Origin: an uncultured Gemmatimonadota bacterium
Lineage (GTDB): Bacteria > JAAXHH01
Direction: 5' to 3'
Length of the DNA: 64,000 nucleotides
NCBI GenBank assembly: GCA_951812955.1
Contig: OX638340.1
Span: forward strand, 608,001 to 672,000
Under the pieces are notes generated by a model. It had not been told where the DNA came from. It did no database searches and saw only the letters and a list, made by a program, of their open reading frames with translations. The first letter of the stretch is position 1; the number at the start of each line of letters is the position of its first letter. This document shows positions 9,328 to 35,853 of this stretch, in pieces. Position numbers and translations under genes: made by a program.

Positions 9328-9749
9328 CCATTTTCCTTCCGCTTGACGATCGTCAGGACGTTCTTGTCGTTTTCCCGGCGGTAGCTCAGTTCATCCATCA
9401 TGGTCCGAACCAGATAGATGCCGAGACCGCCGACGGGCCGGTCTTCAACCCCAGACTCGATATCCGGTTCCGGGGAGTCGGTAAGCGGGTTGAACGCCGG
9501 GCCTTCGTCCCGCAACTCGATGGTCAACGTTTCGGAATCGGAGTCCAGTACCACTTCGAATTCGTGTTCCGGGTCGTTGGCGTGGCCGTGGGTAACGATG
9601 TTGACGCCCAGTTCCTCAAGGACCAGCTTGACCTGGTACACCATGCCCGGCGGCCATTCTTCCGACTCGCCAAGTTCGTCCACGGCCTCGTAAATCCGTT
9701 CGAGTTGGTCCAGTCTGGTAGGCAGGCGAAGAGAGAGTTTTCTACGCAT
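9324..9749 (-). CDS. RsbW/SpoIIAB-like anti-sigma factor serine protein kinase (HATPase_c_2).
   Basis: 141 aa. GHKL ATPase motifs (EELGVNIVTHG, DEGPAFNP, GGLGIYLVRTMMDEL), typical of partner-switching kinases. Confidence 0.7.
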   Translation of the reverse strand: MRRKLSLRLPTRLDQLERIYEAVDELGESEEWPPGMVYQVKLVLEELGVNIVTHGHANDPEHEFEVVLDSDSETLTIELRDEGPAFNPLTDSPEPDIESGVEDRPVGGLGIYLVRTMMDELSYRRENDKNVLTIVKRKENG

Positions 9750-9757
9750 GGGCGAAC

Positions 9758-10915: not shown

Positions 10916-11007
10916 CGCATCCCTGGACGCCGGCGCATCCGTTCGCTATCGACGCGCCCGGCATTTGAGCAGGTTTCTACCGTGAAGCGATCGGCCCGCA
11001 CGGCTAC

Positions 11008-11346
11008 TTACTGACCGATCTTATCCACGGCTTCCGCCTGGGTATCGTGGATGGAAATGATCTTGTCAAATCCGCTGATTTCGAAGACTTCACGGATCGG
11101 GTCCGACAGGGAGCACAGCGCGAAAGCGGCATTCCGCTTCTGAAGCAATCTAGCGATCAGCAGGATGACCCTCAGCCCGGCGCTGCTTATATAGGACAGC
11201 GCTCCGAAATCAAGCAACACCTTGCTGTCGTCTTCCGCAATGGCGCCGTTAAGCGCATCCTCGAATTCCCGGGCGTTCGCACCGTCGATTCGACCTTCAA
11301 CCTTCGCAATCAGTACCTCGTTTGCTCGGTCGACACTGATCTCCAT
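11008..11346 (-). CDS. STAS-domain anti-sigma-factor antagonist (SpoIIAA/RsbV-like).
   Basis: 112 aa. The conserved phosphorylatable Ser context is LDFGALSYISSAGLRVIL, matching the DSSGL motif. A strong SD (AGGGGGA) lies 9 nt before the ATG. Confidence 0.8.
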   Translation of the reverse strand: MEISVDRANEVLIAKVEGRIDGANAREFEDALNGAIAEDDSKVLLDFGALSYISSAGLRVILLIARLLQKRNAAFALCSLSDPIREVFEISGFDKIISIHDTQAEAVDKIGQ

Positions 11347-19675: not shown

Positions 19676-20758
19676 ATGCCCAAGAAACTGGATGTACGCA
19701 TGATACCCGGCACCCGTTCCGTCGACGCGCTGACTGGCGAAGGCTATTTCCCTGTCATCACCTGTCTGGGTGGCAATGAACTGCTCCTGGCCTACCGGGC
19801 CGGCGCAGCGCACATGGGCCTGGGCGGCCGGCTGGACGTGAGACGGTCGGTCGACGGGGGCCTTAACTGGACTGCGCCTGTGACCGTGGCCGACAGCGAA
19901 AGGGACGACCGTAACCCCGCGCTGGGTCTGGCGCCGGACGGTACGCTTGTACTGGCCTATCACTGGCAGGGGTCCTACGATGACGAAGGCGCATGGAAAC
20001 TGGAATTGGGCAGGGCCGATACTCGGGTCGTATTCTCCGAGGATGGCGGCCATACCTGGACCGGTGACGAGCTCATCGATTTCACTCCGATCAACGGCGC
20101 CTCGCCCTTCGGCAAGATCTTCACGGTAGACGGCGTCATGCACATGCTGATCTATGGCGGTTCGCCCTGCTGCGAGGCCGGATCTGGAACGGTCAGGGTC
20201 GGGCCGGCTTCGACGCCGACGTACATCCTCAGATCCAGGGACAACGGGCGATCCTGGGGGGATCCCACGCTGGTCGCACTGGGACTCAACGAATCGGACG
20301 CAGCCATCCTACCCGACGGCCGCTGGCTCTTCGTCGCCCGTTCCGAGGACCGCGCCGAACAGGCGCTTTATGCCTGCGTTTCTGAGGACGGCGGGTACAC
20401 ATGGCGCAACGTGGGACGGGTCACGGACGCAAAGGAACATCCGCCGGACATCACCCTGATGTCCAACGGATGGCTGCTGCTGCTCTTCGGGCGACGGCAT
20501 CCTCCCTTCGGCGTGGAGGGCCTGATCAGCCGGGACGGCGGGATGACCTGGGATGATCGAAGACTGGTTCTGGACGACTCCCTGCCCGGCGGCGACATCG
20601 GTTATCCCTCCACTGCCCGCCTCGAAGACGGTCGTCTGGTTACCGCCTATTACACCGCGGGAACAGCGGAGAGAAAGTGGGAGATGTTCCGTGCCGCAGA
20701 CGTAGCATGCAAGGTCGTGTCTTACGACGAGTCCAGCCTTATTGATCACTGGAGCTAA
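19676..20758 (+). CDS. BNR/Asp-box repeat sialidase-fold (six-bladed beta-propeller) glycoside hydrolase-like protein with no signal peptide.
   Basis: Five Asp-box SxDxGxTW repeats (SVDGGLNWT, SEDGGHTWT, SRDNGRSWG, SEDGGYTWR, SRDGGMTWD). 360 aa. The N-terminus is not hydrophobic. Confidence 0.65.
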   Translation: MPKKLDVRMIPGTRSVDALTGEGYFPVITCLGGNELLLAYRAGAAHMGLGGRLDVRRSVDGGLNWTAPVTVADSERDDRNPALGLAPDGTLVLAYHWQGSYDDEGAWKLELGRADTRVVFSEDGGHTWTGDELIDFTPINGASPFGKIFTVDGVMHMLIYGGSPCCEAGSGTVRVGPASTPTYILRSRDNGRSWGDPTLVALGLNESDAAILPDGRWLFVARSEDRAEQALYACVSEDGGYTWRNVGRVTDAKEHPPDITLMSNGWLLLLFGRRHPPFGVEGLISRDGGMTWDDRRLVLDDSLPGGDIGYPSTARLEDGRLVTAYYTAGTAERKWEMFRAADVACKVVSYDESSLIDHWS

Positions 20759-20806
20759 ATATCGTAATGCGCTGTCCAAGAGCAGGTTACGTATCAGGAA
20801 CCTTGT

Positions 20807-21937
20807 GTGAGACTCGTTGATTCCGGTGAAATCCGCGACGGCCGTGCCATCCCGGATCACCGCAGGAACTGCGCCTTCACCACCATCAACAGGCTGAACG
20901 ACGGCACGATCCTCGTTTCAGGCCGGTGGGGAACGGCGCGGGATTCGGTGGACGGGCACGCCTGCATCTGGGCCACGTCGGACACCGGCCGTACCTGGCG
21001 CCTTCGATATGACGGAAACGGGAAGGGGACTTGGGACGGAACAGCGGGTGAAGTCAAGGGACTGACGAGTACGGAGCTGTCCCCAGGCACGCTCACGGCG
21101 ACGGCCCTGTGGGTCGACCGTTCCAATCCGGATCTTCCTTTCATCCATCCGGAAACGCAGGGCCTGCTGCCCATGCGCATCATGCACGTCGACTCGGGGG
21201 ACGGTGGCCGCACATGGGGTCCGCCGCGCCGAATGGACACAACGCCCCACCTCGCCGCTTCCCCCTGTTCACACCATATCATCCGGTTGTCCGGCGGTAC
21301 CCTTGTCCAGCCCTACGAACAGTGGAAGGAATACGGGGACACGTCGCCGGGCCGGCCCGCCGCGAGGCTGCGGTTATCACGGGACGGTGGGCGTAGCTGG
21401 CCGGATTTCGTCACCGTGGCCCGGCATCCGGACAACAAGCTCGCCTACTGGGACCAGCGGCTGGCTGTCCATCCCGTTGACGGCCGCCTGGCCGCCACCT
21501 TCTGGACCCACGATTTCGATGCGGGCGTCGACATCGACATCCATATCGCCTACGGGTCGCCGGACGGCCGTGCGTGGACGATCCCCCGCGGCACCGGACT
21601 TCCCGGCCAGCACTGCCAGCCCCTCGCCCTTGGTGGGGATCGCCTGCTGGCCGCTTATCCGCGACGCGGGGATCCTCCCGGCATCGTGCTTTCCATCAGC
21701 GAGGATTTCGGCGAAAGCTGGGACCGGAGCCGGGATCTCCTAGTCTACGACAGCATCGCCGGCAATGAGTCCGGATCCCGCGGCAGCCGTACGCAGTCCG
21801 AATTGTGGGGTGACATGGAGCGCTGGCGCTTCGGACATCCCCGGATGGTGCGATTGCCGGACGACGAGGTGTTCGTCGTCTACTACGCGGGAGATGATGC
21901 CGTCAAGACCGCGCGGTGGGCGAGGGTCCGCGTTTAG
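20807..21937 (+). CDS. Second BNR/Asp-box sialidase-fold protein, tandem to the first, also without a signal peptide. GTG start.
   Basis: Asp boxes SDTGRTW, SGDGGRTWG, SRDGGRSWP, SPDGRAWT, SEDFGESWD. 376 aa. Confidence 0.65.
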   Translation: MRLVDSGEIRDGRAIPDHRRNCAFTTINRLNDGTILVSGRWGTARDSVDGHACIWATSDTGRTWRLRYDGNGKGTWDGTAGEVKGLTSTELSPGTLTATALWVDRSNPDLPFIHPETQGLLPMRIMHVDSGDGGRTWGPPRRMDTTPHLAASPCSHHIIRLSGGTLVQPYEQWKEYGDTSPGRPAARLRLSRDGGRSWPDFVTVARHPDNKLAYWDQRLAVHPVDGRLAATFWTHDFDAGVDIDIHIAYGSPDGRAWTIPRGTGLPGQHCQPLALGGDRLLAAYPRRGDPPGIVLSISEDFGESWDRSRDLLVYDSIAGNESGSRGSRTQSELWGDMERWRFGHPRMVRLPDDEVFVVYYAGDDAVKTARWARVRV

Positions 21938-23340: not shown

Positions 23341-24318
23341 CTATCGGCCATAGACCGTCTGGATCATCGCACGGATGTAGCCGTTCGCGTAGGCCTTGCC
23401 TGCCGGACCAGCCATTGATTGGGGGAAGCCCGGTGTGTGGTCCATGCCGAAGGGGCCGCTGTACCCGTTATCGCGGTAGGTTTCCATGGCCCGGCGCATA
23501 TCCACTTCGCCCTCGTCGATGAAAACCTCCGCGAACCTCGGCAGCCGGCCTCTGACGTTCCGGAAATGGACCAGGGCGATCTTTTTCCGGGAGGCCATCT
23601 CGGCGATGATATGGTAGACGTCCTGTGGACCCGCCAGTTCGGTCATGCAACCCTGGCAGAAGAGCATCCTGTGATATGCGCTGGGTACCGCGTCGAAAAT
23701 CCGGCGGAAATGCTCCACCGTGGAGCAGATCTGCGCGACGCCGCCCAGAGGCTCCGGTATGGGCGGGTCGTCCGGGTGGAGCGCCAGGTTTACCCCGGCC
23801 TTTTCGGCCGCCGGGACCGCGGCGCGCATGAAGGCGACCATGTTGTCCCACATCACCTCGGCCGAGACGGGCGGCTCGTGGGGCTGCGGGCGGCTCCGGT
23901 CGAATTCGGCATAATCGAAGGTACTGTACACCGCGCCGCCGCGGCCGATGTCGGAAATGGTGCGGAAGTTGCCCATGGGCTTGAAATTCCAGGCCAGGGT
24001 CGGTATCCCTGCCTTGCCCAGGCATTCGATAAGCCGGACGAAAGCGCCCAGTTCTTCGTCCCGTTCCGCCGTGGCCAGCGTGATCCCCTCCAGGACCGGC
24101 ATGAAGACGGTCTGCAGTTTCAGCCCATGGGACTCGGTCTTTTCCCGGGCCTGTTCGAAAAGCTCGGTACTGTCTTTGCCCGCACGAACGTGCCGTTCCG
24201 CTTCGACCTTCCCTCCGGTCCTCAGGTCCAGCTGGATCATGTCCACGCTGATCGCGCGATAGAAACTAAGGGTCTCGTCGTTGAAATCGGACCAGTTTAC
24301 GACATCATGCAGGTACAT
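23341..24318 (-). CDS. uxuA: D-mannonate dehydratase (UxuA family, xylose-isomerase-like TIM barrel).
   Basis: Matches UxuA blocks: FMPVLEG (cf. FMPVLDW), LALHPDDPPIPEPLGGVAQICSTVEH (cf. [24 protein letters not shown]), HFRNVRG, GMDHTPG. Confidence 0.7.
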   Translation of the reverse strand: MYLHDVVNWSDFNDETLSFYRAISVDMIQLDLRTGGKVEAERHVRAGKDSTELFEQAREKTESHGLKLQTVFMPVLEGITLATAERDEELGAFVRLIECLGKAGIPTLAWNFKPMGNFRTISDIGRGGAVYSTFDYAEFDRSRPQPHEPPVSAEVMWDNMVAFMRAAVPAAEKAGVNLALHPDDPPIPEPLGGVAQICSTVEHFRRIFDAVPSAYHRMLFCQGCMTELAGPQDVYHIIAEMASRKKIALVHFRNVRGRLPRFAEVFIDEGEVDMRRAMETYRDNGYSGPFGMDHTPGFPQSMAGPAGKAYANGYIRAMIQTVYGR

Positions 24319-24380
24319 CGATCGCCTCCAATGCTGGCGCTACGGGTTGGACGACTTCCGCTTCGACCTGACCTACGGGA

Positions 24381-24428
24381 TGGTGATCTGGTGATCTGGT
24401 GATCTGGTGATCTGGTGATCTGGTGATA
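24381..24428. repeat. Perfect 8-bp microsatellite (TGGTGATC)x5 plus one variant copy (TGGTGATA). It lies in the divergent promoter between uxuA (-) and the HpcH aldolase gene (+). Every full unit contains GATC.
   Basis: Read directly from the sequence: tggtgatctggtgatctggtgatctggtgatctggtgatctggtgata. Confidence 0.9.
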
Positions 24429-24518
24429 AGATAACCCCCCGGGCCAGTGCAGCAATTCGAAAATCGATCAGACACCACGTATATCCATATTGGGCTAACG
24501 CAAAGCGGAATCATGTAT

Positions 24519-24524
24519 TATAAT
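24519..24524 (+). promoter_or_regulatory. Candidate sigma70 -10 hexamer TATAAT, preceded by TG-T, oriented toward the HpcH aldolase gene.
   Basis: catgTATTATAATcgg in a locally AT-rich stretch. The best -35 candidate (TTGGGC at 24490-24495) has poor spacing, so confidence is low. Confidence 0.3.
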
Positions 24525-24550
24525 CGGTAGTCCGGCGCACCCGTAGGCAT

Positions 24551-24618
24551 AGCGCATCCATAGGCTAAGCGCATCCGTAGACTGAGCGCATCCGTAAGCC
24601 GGCGCATCCGAATATCGC
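24551..24618. repeat. Four tandem degenerate 17-bp direct repeats (core AGCGCATCCGTA) between the putative promoter and the HpcH aldolase start.
   Basis: agcgcatccataggcta / agcgcatccgtagactg / agcgcatccgtaagccg / gcgcatccgaatatcgc. Confidence 0.8.
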
Positions 24619-24687
24619 GTACGGAAACACGGAGTCAATCCCATCCCATTTCAATCTCGGCAGGCAAACGACACAGGAGCCCTTCCA

Positions 24688-25413
24688 ATGGCGGAACGCA
24701 ACTTGAAACAGCGCATCGGCGCGGGAGAACAGGTCATCGGCGCTAACGTCGGCATGTCCCATACAAGGGAACAGCTTAAAAAGGTAGTAGAGTCAGGTGA
24801 GTACGACTTTCTCTGGGTAGACGGACAGCACAGCGCTTTCAGCGAAGACTCCCTGGTGGAATTCTGCGACAGGGCCGATGCGCTGGATGCCGACGTCATG
24901 TTCCGCATCAAGCACACGTTTCACAGCTACCTGGTCGGTAACCTGCTCGACCTTGGGCCCGCCGGGATCGAAGTGCCCCAGGTCGAATTGGAATCAACGG
25001 TGGATGAGGCGGTCGACTTCTTCTACTATCCTCAGCAGGGCATGCGGAGCTGGGGAGGCGGAGCGCGGCGTAAAGTGGATGAACAGGGCGGCGACCGGCT
25101 GGGCTATGCCGAGTGGTGGAACAACTACGGCGTGCTGATGATGCAGCTTGAATCGATACCCGCGGTGACAGGTGCGCGGAGACTGGCCAAAGCGGGGGTA
25201 GACTGCCTGTCCTTCGGTCCAAACGATCTCATGTACAGTATCGAGGCCCATCCGCACCATCCGTTCCGCGACGTGGACGATTGCGTTCGCCACGTGGTCG
25301 AACAGCTCGCCGGTTCCGGTACGAGGGTGTGTTTCCGGAACCACCCGGCCAGCATGCGGCAGCGGTACGTTGACATGGGTGTAACGGTGTTTCTGGAGAG
25401 TCCGTCGCTGTAG
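24688..25413 (+). CDS. HpcH/HpaI-family 2-keto-3-deoxy-sugar-acid aldolase.
   Basis: 241 aa. Family blocks GANVGMSHTRE, DFLWVDGQHSAFSE, MFRIKHT, ESIPAVTGA, CLSFGPNDL. Confidence 0.7.
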   Translation: MAERNLKQRIGAGEQVIGANVGMSHTREQLKKVVESGEYDFLWVDGQHSAFSEDSLVEFCDRADALDADVMFRIKHTFHSYLVGNLLDLGPAGIEVPQVELESTVDEAVDFFYYPQQGMRSWGGGARRKVDEQGGDRLGYAEWWNNYGVLMMQLESIPAVTGARRLAKAGVDCLSFGPNDLMYSIEAHPHHPFRDVDDCVRHVVEQLAGSGTRVCFRNHPASMRQRYVDMGVTVFLESPSL

Positions 25414-25486
25414 AGGCTGCCGCCAGATAGAATTTGCCGATGCCGGCGGAGTTTTTCCCATTGCGGACGCGGTCCCCACGAATCTG

Positions 25487-27316
25487 TTATGCGCCGGGAC
25501 GCCCTCCGGCAATGTCGGATTTCGCATCGAAATCCAAAGACTGAGCCTCGTACATCTTCGCGAATAGACCACCCTGTTCTACCAGTTCCTTCGGCGTACC
25601 CGATTCGGCCAGTCGGCCCTCACTGATAACCAGGATGCGATCCGCGTGCCGGATCGTCGAGAGTCTGTGGGCGATGACCATGATGGTTCGGCCGGTCCTT
25701 GCCCGTTCGACGGCGATTCGGATCTCTTCTTCGGCCAGTGCATCCAGGGCCGAAGTGGCCTCGTCAAGCACGAGAATACAGGTCGAGGTCCGCATGAGCG
25801 CACGGGCCATGGCGATGCGTTGCTTTTCACCACCGGATAGCAGGATACCGTCTTCTCCCGCCTCGGTAGCGTACCCTTCCGGCAGATTCTCAACGAATTC
25901 GTGCAGTGCGGAAGAACGCGCGGCTCGCTCCACCGCCTCAATTTCATAGTCCGCAACGGGGTAAGCGATGTTGTCGGCAAGCGAAGCGTTCCACATGAAA
26001 ACATCCTGGGGCACGACGGCGATTCGCGACCTGAGAGAGGCCAGCGTCATCTCGCGTACATCCGTTCCGCCAATGGAAATGCTTCCGCTTTCTGGTTCCT
26101 GCATACGGGTCAGCAGGTCGATGATCGTGGTCTTCCCGCCGCCGCTCGGCCCCACGATGCCGACGAACTCACCCCCGTTGACCGTGAAGGAGAGATCTTT
26201 CACCTCGTATCCCCGTTCATAACTGAACCAAATGTCGGAAAACTCGATAGTCGGAGGCGTGATGTCGATCCGTTCCACCGGGCGTCCACGGCCGAATCCT
26301 TCCTCAGCGGGAAGCGCGAATAATCCGTCCAGGCTCTTCACGGAGACGTCGATGAGTTTTGTGCCGGTATAGGTCGCAATTACGGACCGCAACGCGGCGG
26401 AGGCTCTCGGCGTATAGGCCATGACGGCCACGAGACTGCCGATGGTGATATCACCGGCCATGGCCTGGAAAGCGCCATATCCGAGGAGGACGCCCAGGAC
26501 CAGTCCGCTGATCACTTCGTTCGGAAAGTTGAGCACGATATCGTGGAGGGCCGCACCACGCATCTTAACCCGGGCGTGTTTTTCTAATAGCCCCCCACAT
26601 CGCTTCCTGGTATGCGTTTCCCCATTGAACAGGCGTATCGTACGAAACGCGCCGACCATCTCGTAGAGGAAGCTCTCGACGGCCTTGCTCTGTTCGTTCG
26701 AACGGCGGTCCATTTCCTTCGAGTACCTGGACAGGAACCGGGTGGCCAGGTACGTCGCCGGCATCGCGACACAGAAAATCACCGCGAGTTCGACATTTAG
26801 CAGGAACACCATGATCAGCGTCCCCGCCAGCATGATCGAGCTTGTAAAGACGGGGAGCAGTTCCTGCGCGATGTACATCTCGCCGATCCGGCCGGTATCC
26901 CGCGTAACGCGAAAGACGATGTTCCCCCTGGGGATCTTTTCCAGGGCGTCCAGCCTGACATGCAGAAGGTGGTTCAGGACCGCCTTGCGCAGGGCAAGGG
27001 TAACCGACGCACCGATGCGGACCCGCAGATGTCCCTGTACGTAGGAGAAAGCGATCGCCACCAGCGGCGTGGCGACCATGGCCACCAGCAGTCTCCACGC
27101 CAGTGTTGTATCCGACTCCGGGATCGCCGTGTCGAAGAGCATTTTGAAGAACAGGGGCTGGATCAGCATGACCGCTGATCCAGCGAGCATCATGATAACC
27201 GCGGCGCCAATAGTATACTTATGTTGATACAGCGTCTGCCGAACGACTTTGGCGGCATGTGCCACCGGTTCTTTGTTCCTGTGGACTCGATTGGCTTTCC
27301 GATCGTCTGATGGCAT
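25487..27316 (-). CDS. ABC exporter, fused permease and ATPase (MsbA/type-I exporter-like).
   Basis: 609 aa. Six N-terminal TM helices. Walker A GPSGGGKTT. Signature LSGGEKQRIAMARA. Walker B ILVLDEATSALD. Confidence 0.85.
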   Translation of the reverse strand: MPSDDRKANRVHRNKEPVAHAAKVVRQTLYQHKYTIGAAVIMMLAGSAVMLIQPLFFKMLFDTAIPESDTTLAWRLLVAMVATPLVAIAFSYVQGHLRVRIGASVTLALRKAVLNHLLHVRLDALEKIPRGNIVFRVTRDTGRIGEMYIAQELLPVFTSSIMLAGTLIMVFLLNVELAVIFCVAMPATYLATRFLSRYSKEMDRRSNEQSKAVESFLYEMVGAFRTIRLFNGETHTRKRCGGLLEKHARVKMRGAALHDIVLNFPNEVISGLVLGVLLGYGAFQAMAGDITIGSLVAVMAYTPRASAALRSVIATYTGTKLIDVSVKSLDGLFALPAEEGFGRGRPVERIDITPPTIEFSDIWFSYERGYEVKDLSFTVNGGEFVGIVGPSGGGKTTIIDLLTRMQEPESGSISIGGTDVREMTLASLRSRIAVVPQDVFMWNASLADNIAYPVADYEIEAVERAARSSALHEFVENLPEGYATEAGEDGILLSGGEKQRIAMARALMRTSTCILVLDEATSALDALAEEEIRIAVERARTGRTIMVIAHRLSTIRHADRILVISEGRLAESGTPKELVEQGGLFAKMYEAQSLDFDAKSDIAGGRPGA

Positions 27317-27470
27317 GCCCTCGCTCTCCTATGGTCGTCGATTCTCACCAGTAGAGTACGAAATCGTACACGGACAGGGATCGTTCCGGCAGATTCCACA
27401 AAAAGGCAAAGCCCCCGGCGGCATTTACCACCGGGGGCCTGGATCTGCATACCTCTGGAGCGACCTGCGT

Positions 27471-28742
27471 CTATCCCTGCCCCGATCCGCCGAGGACGTC
27501 TTCCAACTCGTTCACGAACACCTCGAGTTCGTCCGGCTTCCCGATGGTTACCCGCAGGTGATTGCTCAGGAGATTGATCTCCCTCGTCCGGTACCCGGAA
27601 CCGCCCCGTACCATCACGCCGCGTTCCATAAGCGCGGAGCCCATGCGGCGGCTGTCCCGCTTGACGTCCACGATCATGTAATTGCCGTGGCTCGGTGTGT
27701 ATGCCAGTCCCAGACGGTCGAATTCGGCGGACAGGTAGTCCTTGCCGTCGCTCACGACCTCTTTCGTACGGGCTACGAATTCGTGATCGTCCAGGGCCGC
27801 GAGGGCCGCGTGCATGCCCAGGGTGCTCAGTCCGCCGCCGAAGAACCCCATGTGCGCCATCAGCATATCCATCATGCGCTGGCTGCCGATCGCGTACCCG
27901 ATTCGCATGCCGGCCAAGCCGTAGATCTTGGAAAAAGTACGGGCGACGACCACATTGTCTCGCTCCAGGGCGAGTTTCGCGGCATCCCGGTAGTCCGGAT
28001 CCCGGACGAAGTGGATGTAGGCCTCGTCGATGAGGACGATGGCCTGCGCTGGCGCCGCGTCTACGAGGGACACCAGGTCCTCGTAGGGCACGATCGTTCC
28101 CGTGGGATTGTTGGGATTGGTGACGACGATCAGGGATGTTCTTGGAGTGATTGCCGCCTTCATGGCGTCGAGGTCGTGAACGAAGTCAGCCGTCGTGGGA
28201 ACGCGGACGGTACTGACGTCCTTGCCCATCATCTGATAGGTTTGAAAACCACGCGCGACCGATCCATAACCCGGGACCGCCTCGATGCACTCCCCGCCAT
28301 TGCTCGCGGCTATTACGGCCAGCGCCTGTAGTATCGGACCGGAACCAGGCGTGACCATTACCCGGTTCAACTCCCTGAAACGCATGAATGACCGCATGTC
28401 GCTAAAGCTCAGTTCGAAATCCTCGACACCCGGAACGCCGTGTAATTTGTTGAGACGAACGGGCAGATCGACACCGAAATCGTACCGGTTGATCTTGTGC
28501 AGGTTTTCGGCAATGGCCGCAACGGCGCGTGGCGAAGCGCCCAGGGGATTCTCGTTGGCTCCAATCTGGACCCGGCCCGGTTCCACGCCGTATCCGCGGA
28601 CGTCGCCGGCCTTCTTACCGGTCGCCATGGCCTGCGCGATCTCCCAGGCCGAACCTGAGGCGAGGGCGCCGGCACCCAGCAGGGCGCCTTTCATGAATCG
28701 ACGCCGCGTAAACCCGTTTTTTAATACACTCCCGAAACCCAT
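27471..28742 (-). CDS. Class I/II PLP-dependent aminotransferase (histidinol-phosphate/aromatic aminotransferase-like) with an N-terminal twin-arginine (Tat) signal peptide. Putatively periplasmic.
   Basis: Tat motif TRRRFMKGALLGAGALASGSAWE. Aminotransferase blocks GANENPLGASP, NPNNPTG. PLP-Lys context TFSKIYGLAGMRIGY. Confidence 0.75.
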   Translation of the reverse strand: MGFGSVLKNGFTRRRFMKGALLGAGALASGSAWEIAQAMATGKKAGDVRGYGVEPGRVQIGANENPLGASPRAVAAIAENLHKINRYDFGVDLPVRLNKLHGVPGVEDFELSFSDMRSFMRFRELNRVMVTPGSGPILQALAVIAASNGGECIEAVPGYGSVARGFQTYQMMGKDVSTVRVPTTADFVHDLDAMKAAITPRTSLIVVTNPNNPTGTIVPYEDLVSLVDAAPAQAIVLIDEAYIHFVRDPDYRDAAKLALERDNVVVARTFSKIYGLAGMRIGYAIGSQRMMDMLMAHMGFFGGGLSTLGMHAALAALDDHEFVARTKEVVSDGKDYLSAEFDRLGLAYTPSHGNYMIVDVKRDSRRMGSALMERGVMVRGGSGYRTREINLLSNHLRVTIGKPDELEVFVNELEDVLGGSGQG

Positions 28743-28903
28743 GGTATGAACCTCCATTCAATGATTACTCGTAAATTGCATCGTATCTACAAAGTGTACA
28801 CCACCTAAGAGTCTGAACCTCCAACTAAAGATTGCCTGCGGATTTCCCACCATCCAAATGTGTAACGCCTGAATTCGAAACCTTATTTCGCTACCTTATT
28901 TCG

Positions 28904-30568
28904 TTACCTGATGTTGAGCCTTGCCATTTGCGTGACGATGTAGTCGGCGCAGCGGAACGCGAGCGCCTGTATGGTTAGCGTCGGGTTGCTCTTGCCGCTG
29001 GTGACGAAGGACGAACCGTCGACGATGAACAGGTTGTCCACGTCGTGGGCCTGGTTGAACTTGTTCACGACCGACGTCGCCGGATCGTTGCCCATTCGGC
29101 AAGTGCCCATGAGATGGGCGTCGCCATGGGGCACGAAATTCGGAGAGGCCACGATCCCATGGGCGCCGGCGGTGTCCAGCAGTTCGCGTGCGCGGTCCCG
29201 AAAGAAGTCGCCGAGTTTGTGCTCGTTCGGATGCACGTTGTACGTCACACGCGGTACCGGCAGGCCCCACTTGTCGTTTACGTCCGGGTCCAGGTCGATC
29301 ATGTTGGATTCCTGGGACATGGACTGCATGCTGGTAAGGGCGACCATGTACCGGGTGTAATTGTCCATGATCCATTTCTTGCGGCGGGCGCCCCACCTGC
29401 GGAGCCGGGGCATGTTCAGGTTGGCGAAGGAAATGGTTTCGCCGTCACCCCGCGGTTCCAGCACGCCTCCGCCGAAGAAACCGTACTTGTCCGGATCCGG
29501 GTCGTAGAAATCCTGGATAATGCGTGAATCCATGACGCCTTTGTACTCGTTGAGATCCTTTTCGTAGAATCCCCGGGCGGACTGGTAGTAGTTGAACATC
29601 AGGTGCCTTCCCACCTTGCCGCTGCTGTTGGCGAGGCCGTCCGGAAAGAGATTGGACTTCGACATGAGCAGCAGGCGCGGCGTATGGACGCCGTTACAGC
29701 AAACGATTACCGCGCGGGCTTCCAACCGGTGTTCACGCAGGTCTTTATCCAGATAGATCACTCCCTCGGCCCGGCCATCCTCGTCGACCACGATCTCCCG
29801 AACGCAGGCATCGGCCCGTATCTGGCAGTTGCCCGTCCTCAGCGCCTGGGGAATCATGGTAACCAGCATGCTGGACCGCGCGCCGATGGTACAGACGTAA
29901 CTTTCGCAGAAACCGCAATTCATGACCGGCGGCCGGCCTCCGTATTCCCGCGAGTTGATTGCCAGCGGCGCCGGATACGAGTGCCATCCCAGCTTCTGGG
30001 CGGCCATGTCTGCCAGGGCGCCCGAACTGGTTCGCGGCACCGGCGGCATGGGGTAGGGACGGCGTCGCGGCGGATCGAAGGGATTGGCGCCCGCCAGGCC
30101 GGATATCCCGACTTCGTATTCGGCCTTCTCGTAGTAATGTTCCAGGTCCCAGTAGTCGATGGGCCAGTCCTGCACGTCCGCGCCGTCCAGGTCGCCGAAA
30201 AGGCTTCTTTCCTTGAAATCGTTCTCGTGCAGCCGCCAGGAAATACCGGTGTAATGGAGCGTGCTGCCGCCCACCGTGCTTTGCATGTGAATCCCGTGAT
30301 CTTCAACGGCCTGATCGTCCGACGACTGCCGGTACGTATTGGGCTGATCGTGGCGATAGATGTTGGGATGGTCATGGTTATTGCTGGCGGGATGCATCGC
30401 CTGGAGTTCGTCCTGGTCGAAGTGGCGCGTCTTTTGAAATGATCCCATTTCCATGGCGACCACCTGCAGGCCCTTCGTGCTCAGTTCCTTGGCCATGACC
30501 GCGCCGGCGGCGCCTGTGCCGATGACGATGACGTCCGGTCGTCGAATCGTGGGATTGGGCAGGGACAT
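28904..30568 (-). CDS. GMC-family FAD-dependent oxidoreductase, large subunit (gluconate 2-dehydrogenase / glycoside 3-dehydrogenase-like).
   Basis: Rossmann FAD motif [22 protein letters not shown]-terminal blocks ([33 protein letters not shown]). 554 aa. Confidence 0.8.
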
Positions 30569-30581
30569 GGGGACTCCGAAA

Positions 30582-31262
30582 CTACGCTTCGCCGACGATT
30601 CTACTCTTCATCGGACCGTCATATGGCTTCCATTCGGGGTATTCGATCTCCGGAATGGTCATGTCGAATTCACTGAAAGGGGGATCGTAGCCAAAAGCCG
30701 CGCGACCTGGAAATCGGATCAGCTTCCATCCGGTCTCGCGATAGTTTCCGCCATAGGAGGGATCACTGAACATGCCCTCCATGGTATGCGTGACCAGCAT
30801 GCGCAGGAAATCCCTGGCGCCCATGGGGGCGTCGTCCGGCCAGTTCCGCGGGGACCTTGCACGGTCGATACCCATCAGGGCCCTGCGCTGATTTCTTGTA
30901 TCGAGATCCAGGAAGCCGGCTTCGTGCGAGAGCTGACAGTACCGGTCGAAAGCGGCCAGGCCGGAGACATAGGACTCCTTGTATTCGGCCCGGTGGCTGC
31001 CGAGGGCCCGGTCGATGTATACGATCACGCGGGCTTCCGCCGCACCGGGGTCGTTGTCGTCGGACGGCATGATCATCCGGGTCAGCGCGTCCACGGTACG
31101 GCCCTGGCGGGCGTCCAGGTTCTGCCAGGTGTATTCGAAGGGAGGTGTTTCCTGGGCGTCGATCGCACCGGTACGGGACAGCACGCCAAGTGTTATCACT
31201 CCACCGGTCGCCCGTGCGGTATTGGAAAGAAACGATCGGCGGGAAAACGGCTTTGACGTCAT
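30582..31262 (-). CDS. Small (gamma) subunit of a gluconate-2-dehydrogenase-type GMC oxidoreductase, with a Tat signal peptide.
   Basis: Tat motif SRRSFLSNTARATGGVITLGVLS after the Met at 31262. Lies 13 nt upstream of the GMC large-subunit gene. Confidence 0.6.
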   Translation of the reverse strand: MTSKPFSRRSFLSNTARATGGVITLGVLSRTGAIDAQETPPFEYTWQNLDARQGRTVDALTRMIMPSDDNDPGAAEARVIVYIDRALGSHRAEYKESYVSGLAAFDRYCQLSHEAGFLDLDTRNQRRALMGIDRARSPRNWPDDAPMGARDFLRMLVTHTMEGMFSDPSYGGNYRETGWKLIRFPGRAAFGYDPPFSEFDMTIPEIEYPEWKPYDGPMKSRIVGEA

Positions 31263-31460
31263 GGATTCCAGGCTCCCGACTCTATAGTTTCCATCGTTCG
31301 AATGCACATCAGGACTGTATACACATATCGCGTTGATTTATTCAATCTATCCGCTTCGAAAATACGGTTGAAAACCGGGTTGACAATAGAATTCGGCAGG
31401 GTTCTGATCGCGCGGGCAAAGAGGTTGACGGCAATACCCGCGAATCTATATTCATAAAGC

Positions 31461-32417
31461 ATGAACATTCTGAAGCCGCAGGCCCTCAAACCAGGTGATA
31501 CAATCGGGATCGTCGCACCGGCCAGCCATTCCGCGCTCCCGAGCGCGCTGCTGAACGGCCGCCGTTCACTCGAAGCCCTCGGATTCCACACGGTGACCGC
31601 ACCGCACCTGGCGGACAGGCACGGTTTTCTGGCCGGCCGGGACGCCGACCGCCTGGCCGACCTGGAAGGCATGTTCACCGATCCAGATATCCATGGAATC
31701 GTTTGCCTTCGCGGCGGATACGGGTCCGTCCGCATGCTGCAGCGCATGGATTTCGATATCGTCCGCACCAACCCCAAGGTCTTCGTCGGATACAGCGACA
31801 TAACCGCCCTCCATGGGGCAATCCATCAACGTACCGGCCTGGTCACCTTTTGGGGTCCCATGGTTGCCTCGGATATGAGTCCGGGTTTCCACCCATACAA
31901 CCGGGATGCCTTCATGAAGGCGGTTACAGGAGCCGATTCCATAGGCAGCATCGTGCATCCCGAGGACATGCCTCCCGTGCAGACCATTCATGGCGGCATG
32001 GCCGCGGGCCCTCTGATCGGTGGCACGCTTTCGTTACTCGCGGCCGCGGTCGGAACACCTTACGAATTCGAGTACGACGGTGCGATCCTGTTTTTCGAGG
32101 ACGTAGGCGAGGAGCCCCACCGGATCGACCGGATGCTGACGCAACTGCTTCAGTCCGGCAGGCTGGATTGCCTGTCCGGGATCGTAATCGGAGAATGTGC
32201 CGGGTGTGGCAGCGCGCCTGACAATCCCGCTTTCCCCTATGGCAACTTCAGTATAGAAGAAGTGTTCCTGGACCGGCTTCAACCGCTCGGAATCCCGGTA
32301 ATCTATGGCCTGGGCATCGGTCACGGGACGTTCAAGGCGACCCTGCCTCTGGGGGTACGGGCTACGCTGGACGGGGATGCACGCACCCTCGCAATCGACG
32401 AACCCGGTGTCATTTAG
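31461..32417 (+). CDS. LD-carboxypeptidase (peptidase S66, LdcA/MccF-like).
   Basis: 318 aa. S66 blocks GDTIGIVAPAS, LRGGYGS, GYSDITALH, GIGHGT. Confidence 0.7.
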   Translation: MNILKPQALKPGDTIGIVAPASHSALPSALLNGRRSLEALGFHTVTAPHLADRHGFLAGRDADRLADLEGMFTDPDIHGIVCLRGGYGSVRMLQRMDFDIVRTNPKVFVGYSDITALHGAIHQRTGLVTFWGPMVASDMSPGFHPYNRDAFMKAVTGADSIGSIVHPEDMPPVQTIHGGMAAGPLIGGTLSLLAAAVGTPYEFEYDGAILFFEDVGEEPHRIDRMLTQLLQSGRLDCLSGIVIGECAGCGSAPDNPAFPYGNFSIEEVFLDRLQPLGIPVIYGLGIGHGTFKATLPLGVRATLDGDARTLAIDEPGVI

Positions 32418-32475
32418 TCTCGACGTTCCGCATCGCCTCCCGCGCGGCAAACGGAATGTATGACAGGGAAAACCT

Positions 32476-33417
32476 ATGGTCAGTCACATCTTGCTGGATG
32501 TACCATTGCCGCCCGCCGTGCTGGACCTGTTCGAGCCCGGGGATACATTCCTTCTGCTTGACGATCTGTCCGACGGAGACGACCGGTGGGGTCTCGTCGA
32601 AGCCTATCTTACCTATGGCCATCCTCCGACGGATGGGGAAACAATGGACCGCATGCCGAACCTGAAGGTCATCAGCAACTTCGGGGTTGGTGTCGACCAC
32701 ATCGATACCGAGGCGGCCCGGGGGCGGGGCATTCCCGTAGGCAATACGCCGAACCTGCTCGACGGCGCAACGGCGGACATGACCTTTACCCTCCTGATGG
32801 CGGCGGCACGGCGGGTCGTCATAGGGGACCGGTTCGCCCGCAGCCCCGAATTCATCCATTACGATCCCAGCATTCTGCACGGATTTGAGGTGCACGGCAG
32901 CACCATCGGCATTATCGGCATGGGCAGCATCGGGAAGCAGGTCGCCAGGCGGGCCGCCGGATTCGACATGGAGATCGTTTACCACAATCGCAGGCGGGAT
33001 CCTGACGACCACATCTACCAGGCCCGGTACGTCGCGCTGGAATCGTTGCTCGATGTATCGGACTTCGTGACGTTGAACTGTCCGCTCACCGATCAGACAC
33101 GTGGACTGATCGACGAAGACGCCTTAAAACGCATGAAGAGAACCGCCGTCCTGGTCAACCTGGCGCGGGGCGGCGTAGTGGACCATGACGCCCTTTACAA
33201 CGCACTGAGCAACGACTGGATCGCTGCGGCGGCGCTGGACGTCACCGAACCCGAACCGTTGCCGAGACATCACCCGCTGCTTGGGCTGGACAACCTGGTG
33301 ATCGCACCCCACCTGGGCAGCGCGACTACGCGCACGCGCCACGCGATGGCCCGCTTGACCGTGGACAATCTCAAGGCGGGACTGGCCGGCCGGACACTGC
33401 CCAGCCGCGTCGTCTGA
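32476..33417 (+). CDS. D-isomer-specific 2-hydroxyacid dehydrogenase (glyoxylate/hydroxypyruvate reductase-like).
   Basis: NAD-binding GIIGMGSIGKQVARRA. Catalytic region LVNLARGGVVDHDAL...APHLGSAT. Confidence 0.85.
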   Translation: MVSHILLDVPLPPAVLDLFEPGDTFLLLDDLSDGDDRWGLVEAYLTYGHPPTDGETMDRMPNLKVISNFGVGVDHIDTEAARGRGIPVGNTPNLLDGATADMTFTLLMAAARRVVIGDRFARSPEFIHYDPSILHGFEVHGSTIGIIGMGSIGKQVARRAAGFDMEIVYHNRRRDPDDHIYQARYVALESLLDVSDFVTLNCPLTDQTRGLIDEDALKRMKRTAVLVNLARGGVVDHDALYNALSNDWIAAAALDVTEPEPLPRHHPLLGLDNLVIAPHLGSATTRTRHAMARLTVDNLKAGLAGRTLPSRVV

Positions 33418-33433: not shown

Positions 33434-34183
33434 TTGCGGCCCGAGAGGGATGATATGGTGTTGGACTCCTCGCAGAAAAGATTCTTCATCGATTTCGGTT
33501 ACCTCGTCCTGCCCGGTCTCATGCGTGAGGAGGCACCGTGGATCATCGAAGAATTCGAGCGCGTGTTTGCCCGGGCCGGTGTCGTACATGACGGCAGCAA
33601 GCGGTCGAGCCTGGGACCCTTCATCGAACGCAGCGCCCGCCTGTGTTCGATGCTGGACAACCCGAAGGTCAACGGACTGCTCGCAGGCCTCCTGGGAGAG
33701 GACTTTAACTACCTGGGCAGCGGCGGCGAGTTGTACGTCGGCGACGGCATGTGGCATCCGGACTGTCATGGAGACCCGATACGCCAGCTCAAGTGGGCAA
33801 TGTATCTCGATCATCTGACCCAGAATACGGGCGCCCTGAGACTCGTCCCGGGTTCCCACCGGCACGGATGGCAGGGTAATCTCGACACCCAGGCGCTCTG
33901 GGGCATCGGCATGGAGGATGTCCCCTGCGTCGCCCCCGACAATGCGCCGGGCGACGTGATCGTGTTCAACCAGATGACCCTGCACAATGCCCTTGGCGGC
34001 GGTAATCGCCGGCGCATGTTGAACCTATTGGCCTGCTCATCGTGCCGTACGGAAGCCGAACTGGATTTTCTCAAGCGCAGACTTCCGGCTTCCCGCGCGG
34101 AACTGCATTGGGAGATCATGCGCGGTACCGCGACGGCCGAACGCATGCGCCACCTGGAGCAACCATGGACCCTGCTGAGCTGA
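33434..34183 (+). CDS. PhyH-family Fe(II)/2-oxoglutarate dioxygenase (paralog 3). Its 3' end overlaps the IlvD/EDD dehydratase start by 19 nt.
   Basis: WHPDCHGD (HxD), LRLVPGSHRHGW and a distal His (TLHNALGG). The Met at 33455 is an alternative start. Confidence 0.65.
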   Translation: MRPERDDMVLDSSQKRFFIDFGYLVLPGLMREEAPWIIEEFERVFARAGVVHDGSKRSSLGPFIERSARLCSMLDNPKVNGLLAGLLGEDFNYLGSGGELYVGDGMWHPDCHGDPIRQLKWAMYLDHLTQNTGALRLVPGSHRHGWQGNLDTQALWGIGMEDVPCVAPDNAPGDVIVFNQMTLHNALGGGNRRRMLNLLACSSCRTEAELDFLKRRLPASRAELHWEIMRGTATAERMRHLEQPWTLLS

Positions 34184-35853
34184 CCGGAGTTGACAAGAAC
34201 CTGACCCGGTACGGAGATACGGAGTTCAGCCGGTACATGCGCAGGGCCTTCCTGTCCTCCGCGGGCTACGACGCCGATGATCTCAACCGGCCGATCATCG
34301 GCATCGCCGATACCTCATCGGATTATACGACCTGCCATCGGGACATGCCCGCGCTGTTGGAGGGCGTCCGGAGAGGAATCACCCAGGCGGGCGGACTCGC
34401 CCTCGCATTTCCCACGATCTCGCTGGCCGAAACCCAGTTGTCCCCCACGTCCATGCTGTTCCGCAACCTGATGGCCATGGGCACGGAGGAAATGATCCGG
34501 TCACAGCCAATGGACGGCGTCGTGCTGCTCGGGGGTTGCGACAAAACCGTACCTGCCCAGCTCATGGCCGCCGTCTCCGCCGGTGTCCCCGCGATCTCGC
34601 TCGTAACCGGCGCCATGCGCACGGGCAGCTGGCATGGCGATCGCCTCGGCGCCTGTACGGATTGCCGGCGTTACTGGCTGCGGCATCGCGCCGGCGAGAT
34701 CGACCGGGAGGAAATCGGTGAAATCGAACAGGCCCTGTGCCCAACGGGCGGAACGTGCATGGTCATGGGCACGGCCTCCACCATGGCCTGCATAACGGCC
34801 ACCCTGGGCCTGATGCTGCCCGGAGGAGCCACGCCGCTTTCCGGATCGGCGGACCGACTCAGGCAGGCGGTGATGACGGGGAGACGCATAGTCGAATTGG
34901 CAAGAGACGGCCAGTCACCGGACAGGTTTCTGACCGGGGCTTCTTTCAACAACGCGGCCATCGTACTCGCCGCGCTGGGAGGCTCCACCAACGCCGTGAT
35001 ACATCTCATCGCCATCGCACGGCGGGCGGGGGTCGAACTTACGCTGGAAGACCTTCACGACGCAGCGCGTGAAACCCCGGTGCTGGTGAACTGCAAGCCC
35101 GTGGGTACGGGATACATGGAAGACTTTCACAAGGCGGGCGGCCTGCCCGTACTGTGGAAGGCCTTGCAGTCCAGGCTGAACCTGGATGCGATGAACGTGA
35201 ATGGCTTGGCACTGGGAGAGATGCTGAAGGATACGCCGGCGCCGGCCGGGTGGCAGGATAACATCGGCACGCTGGAACACCCCATCGGCCCGCCCGGTGC
35301 GCTGGTCGTCCTGCGCGGTACACTCGCACCCGACGGTGCGCTGATCAAACGGGCCGCGGCTGCTTCGGACCTGCAGCGGCACCGGGGTCCGGCGGCCGTA
35401 TTCGAGTCACCCGACGACGTTGCGGCCCGGATCGACGACCCGGTATTGGGATTGACCCCCGATCACGTCCTCGTGATGCGGAATGCCGGTCCCGTGGCCA
35501 TGGGCATGCCGGAGGCCGGTTCGCTTCCCATACCGGCCTACCTGGCGAAAAAGGACGTCGTGGACATGGTGCGCGTTTCCGATGCGAGGATGAGCGGCAC
35601 GGCCTACGGCACGGTCGTGTTGCACTGCTGCCCTGAAGCCGCCGTGGGCGGTCCGCTGGCGCTCGTAAGAGACGGAGACCTCATCGAACTAGACGTGGCG
35701 CAACGGCGCCTGGACCTGTGCGTATCCGAGGAAGAATTGACCCGGCGAAAAACCAGTCACGTACCTCCCCCTTCGCCCGAAAGAGGGTGGCGCAGGCTAT
35801 ACGCCGAACATGTCCTTCCCGCGCACCTGGGCGCCGACCTGGATTTTCTCTAG
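34165..35853 (+). CDS. IlvD/EDD-family dehydratase (sugar-acid / dihydroxy-acid dehydratase, e.g. arabinonate/xylonate/gluconate dehydratase-like).
   Basis: Family blocks IGIADTSSDYTTCH, GGCDKTVPAQLMA, CPTGGTCMVMGTASTMA, SDARMSGTAYGTVVLHCCPEAAVGGPLAL. The ATG at 34165 is preferred over the longer ORF. Confidence 0.85.
   Translation: MDPAELTGVDKNLTRYGDTEFSRYMRRAFLSSAGYDADDLNRPIIGIADTSSDYTTCHRDMPALLEGVRRGITQAGGLALAFPTISLAETQLSPTSMLFRNLMAMGTEEMIRSQPMDGVVLLGGCDKTVPAQLMAAVSAGVPAISLVTGAMRTGSWHGDRLGACTDCRRYWLRHRAGEIDREEIGEIEQALCPTGGTCMVMGTASTMACITATLGLMLPGGATPLSGSADRLRQAVMTGRRIVELARDGQSPDRFLTGASFNNAAIVLAALGGSTNAVIHLIAIARRAGVELTLEDLHDAARETPVLVNCKPVGTGYMEDFHKAGGLPVLWKALQSRLNLDAMNVNGLALGEMLKDTPAPAGWQDNIGTLEHPIGPPGALVVLRGTLAPDGALIKRAAAASDLQRHRGPAAVFESPDDVAARIDDPVLGLTPDHVLVMRNAGPVAMGMPEAGSLPIPAYLAKKDVVDMVRVSDARMSGTAYGTVVLHCCPEAAVGGPLALVRDGDLIELDVAQRRLDLCVSEEELTRRKTSHVPPPSPERGWRRLYAEHVLPAHLGADLDFL

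Follow-up and report, generated by a model that had tools for sequence, protein, structure and literature searches.

A three-gene operon predicted to link a periplasmic FAD-dependent dehydrogenase with a Tat-exported aminotransferase in an uncultured Gemmatimonadota bacterium

In the genome of an uncultured Gemmatimonadota bacterium (GenBank assembly GCA_951812955.1, contig OX638340.1), we analyzed a stretch of 64,000 nt (positions 608,001 to 672,000), hereafter the window, whose own numbering is used throughout. Its minus strand carries three consecutive genes, here called the trio, for a small "hitchhiker" subunit, a GMC-family FAD dehydrogenase catalytic subunit and a pyridoxal 5'-phosphate (PLP)-dependent aminotransferase with a twin-arginine translocation (Tat) signal. 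Our preferred reading, which we hold tentatively and with slightly more doubt than confidence, is that these genes form an operon whose dehydrogenase and aminotransferase act in the periplasm on one and the same sugar-derived metabolite, likely a 2-oxo sugar acid.

The strongest indication that the two enzymes belong together comes from the conservation of the trio. Loci were gathered around homologues of the aminotransferase and of the GMC protein from metagenomes and metagenome-assembled genomes (MAGs), and then searched with four proteins of the window, that is, the trio and an adjacent ATP-binding cassette (ABC) exporter. The small subunit and GMC genes adjoin the aminotransferase gene in every locus with sufficient flank whose aminotransferase is at least 51% identical to that of the window. 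Besides the window, L087 and L088, the trio is present in L001/L002 (80% identity of the aminotransferase), L172 (64%), L089/L090 (63%), L003 (= L092) and the P0022 contig (57-58%), and L167/L174 (51%; a Latescibacteria MAG, L167 being JACQVL010000170.1). Its order is altered in L089/L090, where the aminotransferase is followed by a NapC-like cytochrome, the small subunit, the GMC protein and a multihaem cytochrome. The trio spans at least Gemmatimonadota, Latescibacteria and one candidate division, and its flanks represent five different context types. No GMC gene was found near the Tat-signal aminotransferases of 30-46% identity in about 75 loci, and a profile search of genome contigs with the aminotransferase alignment returned only relatives of at most 41% identity, mostly cytoplasmic HisC proteins and the Pseudomonas PtaA, with no GMC neighbors.

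The GMC-linked aminotransferases fall into one cluster at 50% identity and share a private signature, PEQRDRGL at eight alignment positions, that ends abruptly between P0026 and P0027; judged by these features, they are one orthologue group. That the trio is retained as a block speaks for a metabolite common to both enzymes. The initial annotation had already paired the dehydrogenase with the transaminase, and the persistence of this pairing in five contexts supports a functional link between the two.

The initial annotation had also joined four minus-strand open reading frames (ORFs) into a single module. All four are present, although two start codons had to be revised. The small-subunit gene (30582-31262, 226 aa) most likely starts at the ATG at 31262 (MTSKPFSRRSFL...), which is preceded by a GGGAG Shine-Dalgarno sequence, and not at the GTG of the listed ORF (31307). 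The GMC gene (28904-30568, 554 aa) starts 13 nt past the small-subunit stop codon. For the aminotransferase gene (27471-28742, 423 aa; listed ORF to 28757), the most likely start is the ATG at 28742 (MGFGS...), with GGAGG 8 nt upstream, and close homologues begin at the same site. The spacer of about 160 nt between the GMC and aminotransferase genes contains no predicted terminator. A terminator-like hairpin lies 31 nt past the aminotransferase stop codon (27409-27440, minus strand; 14-bp stem with 10 G-C pairs and a T-rich tail, TTTGCCTTTTTG) and probably ends an operon made up of the small subunit, GMC and aminotransferase genes.

Some further details of the locus may be recorded here. The spacer between the GMC and aminotransferase genes (28743-28903) opens with a 13-nt tandem unit, CGAAATMAGGTAG, present in two copies in the window and three in L087; the spacer measures about 160 nt in these two loci and about 55 nt in L088 and L001. 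Upstream of the small subunit, the divergent intergenic region (31359-31452) holds sigma-70-like sites on the minus (31386-31359) and plus (31425-31452) strands, which are consensus matches only, four having been found against 2.9 expected from shuffling. An Rfam scan of positions 24000-32600 at E <= 1 gave zero matches, and no riboswitch or leader was detected there. An antisense ORF with an apparent twin-arginine motif (30453-31256, plus strand) overlaps the small-subunit gene and was rejected as spurious.

Export of the dehydrogenase pair and of the aminotransferase is well predicted from their N-termini. That of the aminotransferase carries TRRRFMKGALLGAGALASGSA, in which T-R-R-R-F-M-K fits the consensus S/T-R-R-x-F-L-K. 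Of the 120 best homologues, which reach down to 37% identity, 118 have a twin-arginine motif at the same site, and the remaining two are N-terminally truncated sequences; being so widely kept, the motif is not a chance match, and the twin-arginine signal reported in the initial annotation is borne out. The h-region is Gly/Ala-rich and moderately hydrophobic (Kyte-Doolittle 1.4). In the AlphaFold model (mean pLDDT 86.9), residues 1-36 have a pLDDT below 50 and the remainder is confidently modeled. The SRRSFL motif of the small subunit is kept in all nine orthologous loci inspected (L001, L003, L087, L088, L089, L167, L172, L174 and L168). The GMC subunit has no signal peptide and begins at the FAD-binding GxGxxG motif (residues 13-24), as do the GMC homologues whose N-termini were listed. 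Precedents exist for both modes of export. In the FAD-dependent glucose dehydrogenase (FAD-GDH) of Burkholderia cepacia, the small gamma subunit is the Tat "hitchhiker" carrier of the cofactor-loaded catalytic subunit (PMC6719666), and PtaA and PvdN are characterized periplasmic PLP enzymes (PMC6206403).

Signs of a diderm host are found in the window itself, in ORFs resembling KdsA, KdsB and LptB, assigned by N-terminal sequence only. The SufB protein of the window matches proteins of Gemmatimonadota MAGs at 95-96% identity, and the near-identical contigs MKWU01 and LXNJ01 are, we presume, from Aplysina sponge metagenomes. The window encodes one more protein predicted to use the Tat route, a DctP/TRAP-type solute-binding protein (42002-43120, plus strand) with a twin-arginine motif followed by a lipobox (MDKIKRREFLK...VAGC).

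Aminotransferases of this kind are not confined to the trio. Among the best 150 representatives (50%-identity clusters), about 38 bear twin-arginine-type N-termini, and these proteins are routinely annotated as "histidinol-phosphate aminotransferase". The statement in the initial annotation that periplasmic PLP transaminases are rare therefore holds for characterized enzymes, such as PtaA and PvdN (PMC6206403), but not in sequence space, where dozens of 50%-identity clusters are found. Tat-signal HisC-like aminotransferases appear to be common and little studied.

The dehydrogenase pair was readily recognized. The GMC protein contains PF00732 (E = 2.2e-14) and PF05199 (E = 6.7e-23), the small subunit PF13618 (Gluconate_2-dh3; E = 4e-26), and the best solved relatives of the GMC protein, each at about 30% identity, are the alpha subunit of the B. 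cepacia FAD-GDH (BcGDH; 6a2u_B, 4e-62) and the large subunit of the Gluconobacter fructose dehydrogenase (7w2j_A, 6e-59). A search of PDB sequences with the small subunit gave zero matches. In the alignment with 6a2u, the histidine that binds FAD covalently (His105 of BcGDH; PMC6719666) and the catalytic His/Asn pair all have counterparts in the GMC protein, the paired segments being HLMGT/HITGS, SNPTLTI/VNVTLTI and TLHY/TWHW. The initial annotation had described the two proteins as a dehydrogenase with its Tat-signal small subunit, and from these similarities we take them to be a genuine periplasmic FAD-dependent dehydrogenase pair.

The GMC subunit probably also carries an Fe-S cluster. In BcGDH, the 3Fe-4S cluster is bound by Cys212, Cys218 and Cys222 (PMC6719666). 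The GMC protein has a three-cysteine loop with the spacing C-x2-C-x4-C, in which Cys218 and Cys222 each have an aligned counterpart, the first cysteine being shifted by three residues, and this CxxCxxxxC loop is found in 120 of 120 homologues. As to where the electrons go, two loci stand apart. In L089 (9914-10606 and 13275-14096) and L168 (5933-7015 and 9664-10464), NapC/NirT-like tetrahaem and c7/c3-like multihaem cytochromes flank the small subunit and GMC genes. These flanking genes, together with the absence of a classical tri-haem beta subunit, suggest a different electron outlet in these marine relatives.

The aminotransferase belongs to subfamily I-beta (HisC, aromatic aminotransferase (ArAT) and PtaA-like). 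A Pfam scan matched PF00155 (E = 1.3e-47), PF00266 and PF04864 only, with no match to PF01041 (DegT/DnrJ/EryC1). None of the four proteins reached an NCBIfam equivalog cut-off. The aminotransferase scored 227.9 bits against PRK09105 (NF006580; cut-off 444), in a match that spans residues 14-422 and profile positions 3-371 and includes the signal region, 223 bits against HisC (TIGR01141; cut-off 276.55) and 170.6 bits against PtaA (NF051461; cut-off 500). It resembles PtaA in its apparent mode of working and scores below the membership thresholds of PtaA, PRK09105 and HisC alike. Foldseek comparison of the model returned a generic HisC fold (best matches 3ly1 and 4r2n, E about 1e-28), which gave no information on the substrate.

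More can be drawn from individual residues. The PLP-binding residues K272, D239, N212, Y242 and R280 are conserved and correspond to K214, D184, N157, Y187 and R222 of E. coli HisC, and R379 and R397 align with its R322 and R335. The anchoring arginine, R397, is conserved; in I-beta enzymes it binds a carboxylate or a phosphate. For the other arginine, R379, the frequency is 93% in the GMC-linked clade against 8% in the other Tat-signal aminotransferases. In the ArAT of Mycobacterium tuberculosis (Mtb), the "arginine switch" residue Arg322 pairs with the distal carboxylate of dicarboxylates (PMC4703992), and R379 may be its equivalent by position, an analogy drawn with ArAT outside the alignment used. 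On these residues, an alpha-keto acid or a phosphorylated substrate seems to fit the enzyme better than a neutral 3-keto-glycoside would.

The genes around the trio point in the same general direction. On the plus strand, beyond the divergent intergenic region, are an S66 LD-carboxypeptidase-like gene (31461-32417; NF008424, 168 bits, cut-off 378), a D-2-hydroxyacid dehydrogenase gene (32476-33417) of the glyoxylate/hydroxypyruvate/2-ketoaldonate reductase type (glyoxylate reductase 293 and GhrB 225 bits, both below cut-offs) and a PhyH-family Fe(II)/2-oxoglutarate dioxygenase gene (33434-34183; PF05721). Two neighboring sugar-acid enzymes score above the cut-offs of their models, namely a galactonate dehydratase (345 bits against 311) and an IlvD/Edd-family sugar-acid dehydratase (743 against 539). 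A protein resembling mannonate dehydratase, an HpcH aldolase and a PfkB kinase are also encoded nearby, along with the GhrB-like reductase just described. The S66 gene keeps its divergent position beside the trio in L001, L089, L172 and L173, where the GhrB-like reductase gene is also found next to both; PhyH recurs in L172, L173 and L168 and is absent in L001. Since the S66 protein has no signal peptide, it is taken to be cytoplasmic.

Other features of this neighborhood are mentioned for completeness. The listed ORF of the IlvD/Edd dehydratase (34042-35853, plus strand) overlaps the end of PhyH, and its true start is probably an internal Met near 34165 (MDPAELTG...) because the L001 orthologue has 562 aa. 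Adjoining the sugar-acid dehydratase genes is a tandem pair of BNR_2 paralogues (19676-21937, plus strand), sialidase-like proteins that lack signal peptides and are conserved in L001. An involvement in inositol or inosamine metabolism, raised by an IolG-like Gfo/Idh/MocA neighbor and by IolC-like proteins as the best match of the PfkB kinase, was discarded; the scores were far below cut-offs and the aminotransferase family is unsuited.

From these data we propose the following scheme. The GMC subunit, loaded with FAD and probably with an Fe-S cluster, would fold in the cytoplasm and cross the membrane by the Tat route piggy-backed on the small subunit, by analogy with the B. cepacia FAD-GDH, and the PLP-loaded aminotransferase would be exported through its own signal, as PtaA is. 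In the periplasm, the dehydrogenase would turn a hydroxyl group on a sugar-derived compound into a carbonyl, and its electrons would reach the respiratory chain by way of cytochromes c whose genes lie elsewhere, or, in some relatives, through multihaem cytochromes encoded in the operon. The aminotransferase would then interconvert carbonyl and amine on that same metabolite. Two routes can be envisaged. In the first, the dehydrogenase would turn an aldonate into a 2-keto-aldonate, as gluconate 2-dehydrogenase does, and the aminotransferase would interconvert it with a 2-amino-2-deoxy-aldonate. In the second, the dehydrogenase would oxidize C1 of an amino sugar to give a 2-amino-aldonate, which the aminotransferase would deaminate. 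For an L-specific fold-type-I enzyme, stereochemistry would require an L configuration at C2, that is, a mannosaminate-like and not a glucosaminate-like compound. Either route would end in a 2-keto acid that could be imported and then handled in the cytoplasm by enzymes such as those encoded nearby (2-ketoacid reductase, sugar-acid dehydratases, PfkB kinase and aldolase), in analogy to the Gad/kgu system of Pseudomonas.

This sugar-acid scheme is favored because a class-I aminotransferase with an anion-anchoring arginine suits alpha-keto or alpha-amino acids or phosphate esters, because genes of sugar-acid catabolism abound in the Gemmatimonadota-type contexts, and because it mirrors the 2-ketogluconate scheme of Pseudomonas. 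A 2-keto-aldonate, the type of product made by gluconate 2-dehydrogenase, is an alpha-keto acid. Taken together, the neighbors, the anchoring arginine and the clade-specific second arginine make 2-oxo or 2-amino sugar acids more likely substrates than neutral 3-keto-glycosides.

Several observations weigh against this scheme. No CxxCH-containing ORF, such as a tri-haem cytochrome c would require, was found in or beside the operon among the ORFs of the window. The attempt to read the regiochemistry of the GMC enzyme from its solved relatives failed, FAD-GDH and fructose dehydrogenase being equally distant (about 30% identity); the former oxidizes C1 and the latter C5. Tat export is itself a prediction. 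The sugar-acid neighbors are confined to Gemmatimonadota-type contexts, those of L003/P0022 and L167/L174 having amidohydrolases, Nramp or DUF4153 instead. Many other Tat-signal aminotransferases have an arginine two positions later (T-x-R), for which reason the second-arginine signature should not be over-read, since the residue may only have moved along the sequence instead of having been gained. Finally, L168, with a GMC orthologue of 67% identity and cytochromes, has no aminotransferase gene within 8 kb, and GMC homologues of 52% identity (L170) also lack one, so that the linkage from GMC to aminotransferase is less strict than the reverse.

Directly after the aminotransferase gene in L167 there is a gene (9383-11074) for an Amidohydro_3/D-aminoacylase-like protein with a twin-arginine motif and a lipobox (MAWTRRMFLK...LNAGC). 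This protein fits an N-acyl-amino-acid-like intermediate, and in that lineage the pathway could have it as its third periplasmic enzyme.

The exporter, which the initial annotation had counted as a member of the module, has to be removed from it. Its gene (25487-27316, minus strand) encodes a protein of 609 aa with fused transmembrane and nucleotide-binding domains (PF00664 and PF00005). Scores against MsbA models are far from the cut-offs (TIGR02203, 344 against 602 bits; NF008381, 298 against 867; the best, MsbA_rel, 353 against 780), and the protein is best regarded as a generic type-I ABC exporter. Only L087 and L091 share it with the window; L001, L003, L089, L167 and L172 do not have it. 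In L001 (11272-11646, compared with 24688-27316 of the window), both the exporter and the adjacent HpcH aldolase genes are missing. A 115-nt remnant of the latter persists (11383-11495 of L001, equivalent to 24931-24817 of the window), which indicates a deletion in the L001 lineage and not an insertion in the window, one that left the trio intact. Given the terminator-like hairpin in front of it, its poor conservation and this deletion, the exporter was ruled out as a fourth component; it is probably a separate and dispensable adjacent unit, and the module consists of three genes. A false lead is thereby removed.

Three other explanations were weighed against a shared sugar acid. According to the first, which we consider unlikely, the aminotransferase would work as PtaA does, on free amino acids or on residues of peptides or secreted metabolites, in tailoring or nitrogen scavenging, and the dehydrogenase would be only loosely tied to it, either supplying a 2-keto acid as acceptor that returns pyridoxamine 5'-phosphate (PMP) to PLP or being merely co-regulated. 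PtaA, the sole characterized relative, deaminates a glutamyl residue in the periplasm, with its PLP regeneration left unexplained (PMC6206403), and the second arginine of the Mtb ArAT binds dicarboxylates such as glutamate and 2-oxoglutarate (PMC4703992). Peptide-related genes also occur in relevant places. Other Tat-signal aminotransferase clades adjoin secreted M24 and M28 peptidases, amidohydrolases and an Asp/Glu racemase, the S66 carboxypeptidase is a conserved neighbor of the trio, and genes for SBP_bac_5 and M20 peptidase proteins lie near L172 and on the P0022 contig. However, the S66 protein is cytoplasmic, lacking a signal peptide, the score against the PtaA model is only 171 against a cut-off of 500, and a pyoverdine or non-ribosomal peptide synthetase context is absent. 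Strict conservation of the block amid changing flanks also argues for a shared pathway and not for mere co-regulation.

The second explanation, in line with the initial annotation, would make the GMC enzyme a glycoside 3- (or 2-) dehydrogenase and have the aminotransferase aminate the neutral keto-glycoside to a 3-amino sugar, with the exporter delivering the substrate or exporting the product in the modification of a glycan or secreted metabolite. We regard it as quite unlikely. The linkage of dehydrogenase and aminotransferase that it builds on is real, glucoside 3-dehydrogenases with FAD and a small subunit belong to the same enzyme group (for the group overall, see PMC6719666), HisC itself aminates a ketone without an alpha-carboxylate, and the exporter does come after the aminotransferase in the window, L087 and L091. 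Nevertheless, the hairpin separates the two, and the exporter is mostly absent, its deletion in L001 having left all three genes of the trio in place. The aminotransferase lacks PF01041, the family used for keto-sugar amination, belongs to a family that is not known to act on neutral keto-sugars, and has kept anion-binding arginines that would be needless for a neutral keto-glycoside. Its neighbors, too, are catabolic sugar-acid enzymes and not glycosyltransferases or biosynthetic genes.

The third explanation, an ordinary cytoplasmic histidinol-phosphate or aromatic aminotransferase with a non-functional twin-arginine motif and a fortuitous dehydrogenase neighbor, would account for the HisC/ArAT-type fold and catalytic residues and for the 223 bits against TIGR01141, but it is effectively excluded by a score that falls short of the 276.55 bits set for HisC, by the N-terminal extension of about 45-60 residues, disordered in the model, with S/T-R-R-x-F-L-K in 118 of 120 homologues and in dozens of 50%-identity clusters, by the absence of his or aro genes nearby and by a dehydrogenase linkage kept in five contexts.

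Each component of the trio belongs to a known superfamily; the apparent novelty lies in their conserved pairing within one operon, with an aminotransferase clade of its own. The BcGDH, fructose dehydrogenase and gluconate 2-dehydrogenase complexes likewise combine a signal-less GMC subunit, with the same FAD histidine, His/Asn pair and a three-cysteine loop, and a PF13618 twin-arginine small subunit encoded immediately upstream (PMC6719666). The GMC protein of the trio is only about 30% identical to them, and its cysteines are spaced C-x2-C-x4-C where theirs are C(C)-x5-C-x3-C. The operon of the window also differs in lacking a tri-haem cytochrome c gene and in having a Tat-signal aminotransferase, no aminotransferase subunit being mentioned in PMC6719666.

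Among aminotransferases, the Pseudomonas PtaA (loci L053, L063 and L077; about 34% identical) is likewise a Tat-signal PLP transaminase of the HisC-like I-beta type. It leaves the cytoplasm in folded form with the cofactor bound and, in the periplasm, turns the glutamyl side chain of pyoverdine into 2-oxoglutaryl, and its authors already suspected roles of such enzymes in other periplasmic pathways (PMC6206403). The aminotransferase of the window is not its orthologue: it comes from another phylum, has a GMC dehydrogenase as partner instead of pyoverdine genes, and bears its own signature, including R379. With HisC and ArAT (Mtb Rv3772, PDB 4R2N; E. coli HisC, 1FG3), it shares the fold, the PLP residues, the anchoring arginine and the second arginine (PMC4703992), but it differs in the Tat signal of about 40 residues at its N-terminus, in a HisC score below the cut-off and in lacking a context of histidine or aromatic biosynthesis.

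In Pseudomonas, the 2-ketogluconate produced by a periplasmic gluconate dehydrogenase is taken up into the cell, where KguK phosphorylates it and KguD then carries out the reduction (PMC11678583). The Gad/KguT/KguK/KguD system parallels our proposal in that a GMC/small-subunit dehydrogenase makes a periplasmic 2-keto sugar acid, and its PfkB-type kinase, 2-hydroxyacid-dehydrogenase-type reductase and Edd-family dehydratase (PMC11678583) represent families that also adjoin the trio. However, that pathway has no aminotransferase, the window proteins score below the Kgu and Edd equivalog cut-offs and no KguT-like transporter was identified; the analogy between the two systems is a proposed one. 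Conversion of a hydroxyl to an amino group by a dehydrogenase followed by a PLP transaminase is seen in NtdC/NtdA (kanosamine), GnnA/GnnB, NeoQ/NeoB and KdnB/KdnA, and the NeoQ-type GMC flavoprotein (PDB 7dve) is a weak match of the GMC protein (1.6e-12). Such pairs are cytoplasmic, act on nucleotide- or phosphate-activated sugars or pseudo-oligosaccharides, and use aminotransferases of other families, such as DegT/DnrJ/EryC1; they are not known to use HisC-like I-beta enzymes. Full-text literature searches (periplasmic aminotransferase; glucoside 3-dehydrogenase with aminotransferase) returned the PtaA and PvdN work only, and the pairing of a GMC-type dehydrogenase with an aminotransferase was not found.

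Two further groups of Tat-signal aminotransferases came to light during the survey. At least one further paralogue, of 45% identity, occurs in the same Gemmatimonadota lineage (L176, on the same 1.4-Mb contig as L001, and L005/L006) in a different context, with a porin, a phosphate-binding-like solute-binding protein, Gfo/Idh/MocA and a ceramidase upstream and an alpha/beta-hydrolase, a nitroreductase, DHDPS, a DegT-type aminotransferase and a class-III aminotransferase downstream. Another clade, about 40% identical, lies in a conserved cluster on marine metagenome contigs (L108, L116-L118 and L120-L122), in the order secreted amidohydrolase, pyrroloquinoline quinone (PQQ) quinohaemoprotein dehydrogenase (PF01011 plus a cytochrome c domain), M24 peptidase-like protein, aminotransferase and NHL-repeat propeller. 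With the quinohaemoprotein dehydrogenase two genes upstream of the aminotransferase, this is a second case, not homologous to the trio, in which a periplasmic dehydrogenase is paired with a Tat-signal aminotransferase, and it hints at a wider theme.

Transamination is treated as cytoplasmic chemistry, and work on PtaA, the only periplasmic transaminase of its family to have been studied, leaves the source of its co-substrate open. A bolder possibility, to which we give little weight at present, is that the trio works as an extracytoplasmic device for carbon-nitrogen exchange, in which a 2-keto sugar acid or keto-sugar made by the GMC enzyme would serve in situ as amino acceptor or donor for the exported aminotransferase. 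If so, amino-sugar acids would be made outside the cytoplasm, or amino groups would be stripped from extracellular amino compounds, and the regeneration of PLP by a periplasmic transaminase would find an explanation. Along with the PQQ pairing, a periplasmic dehydrogenase combined with a transaminase would become a general and so far unrecognized type of pathway.

If our proposal of a shared sugar-derived metabolite is correct, the trio would offer a tractable system for periplasmic PLP chemistry and would point to an unrecognized route by which Gemmatimonadota, Latescibacteria and related uncultured lineages, among them probable sponge symbionts, turn over amino-sugar acids or amino sugars. 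It would also provide a first functional handle on the dozens of Tat-signal "histidinol-phosphate aminotransferase" families that automatic annotation has mislabeled.

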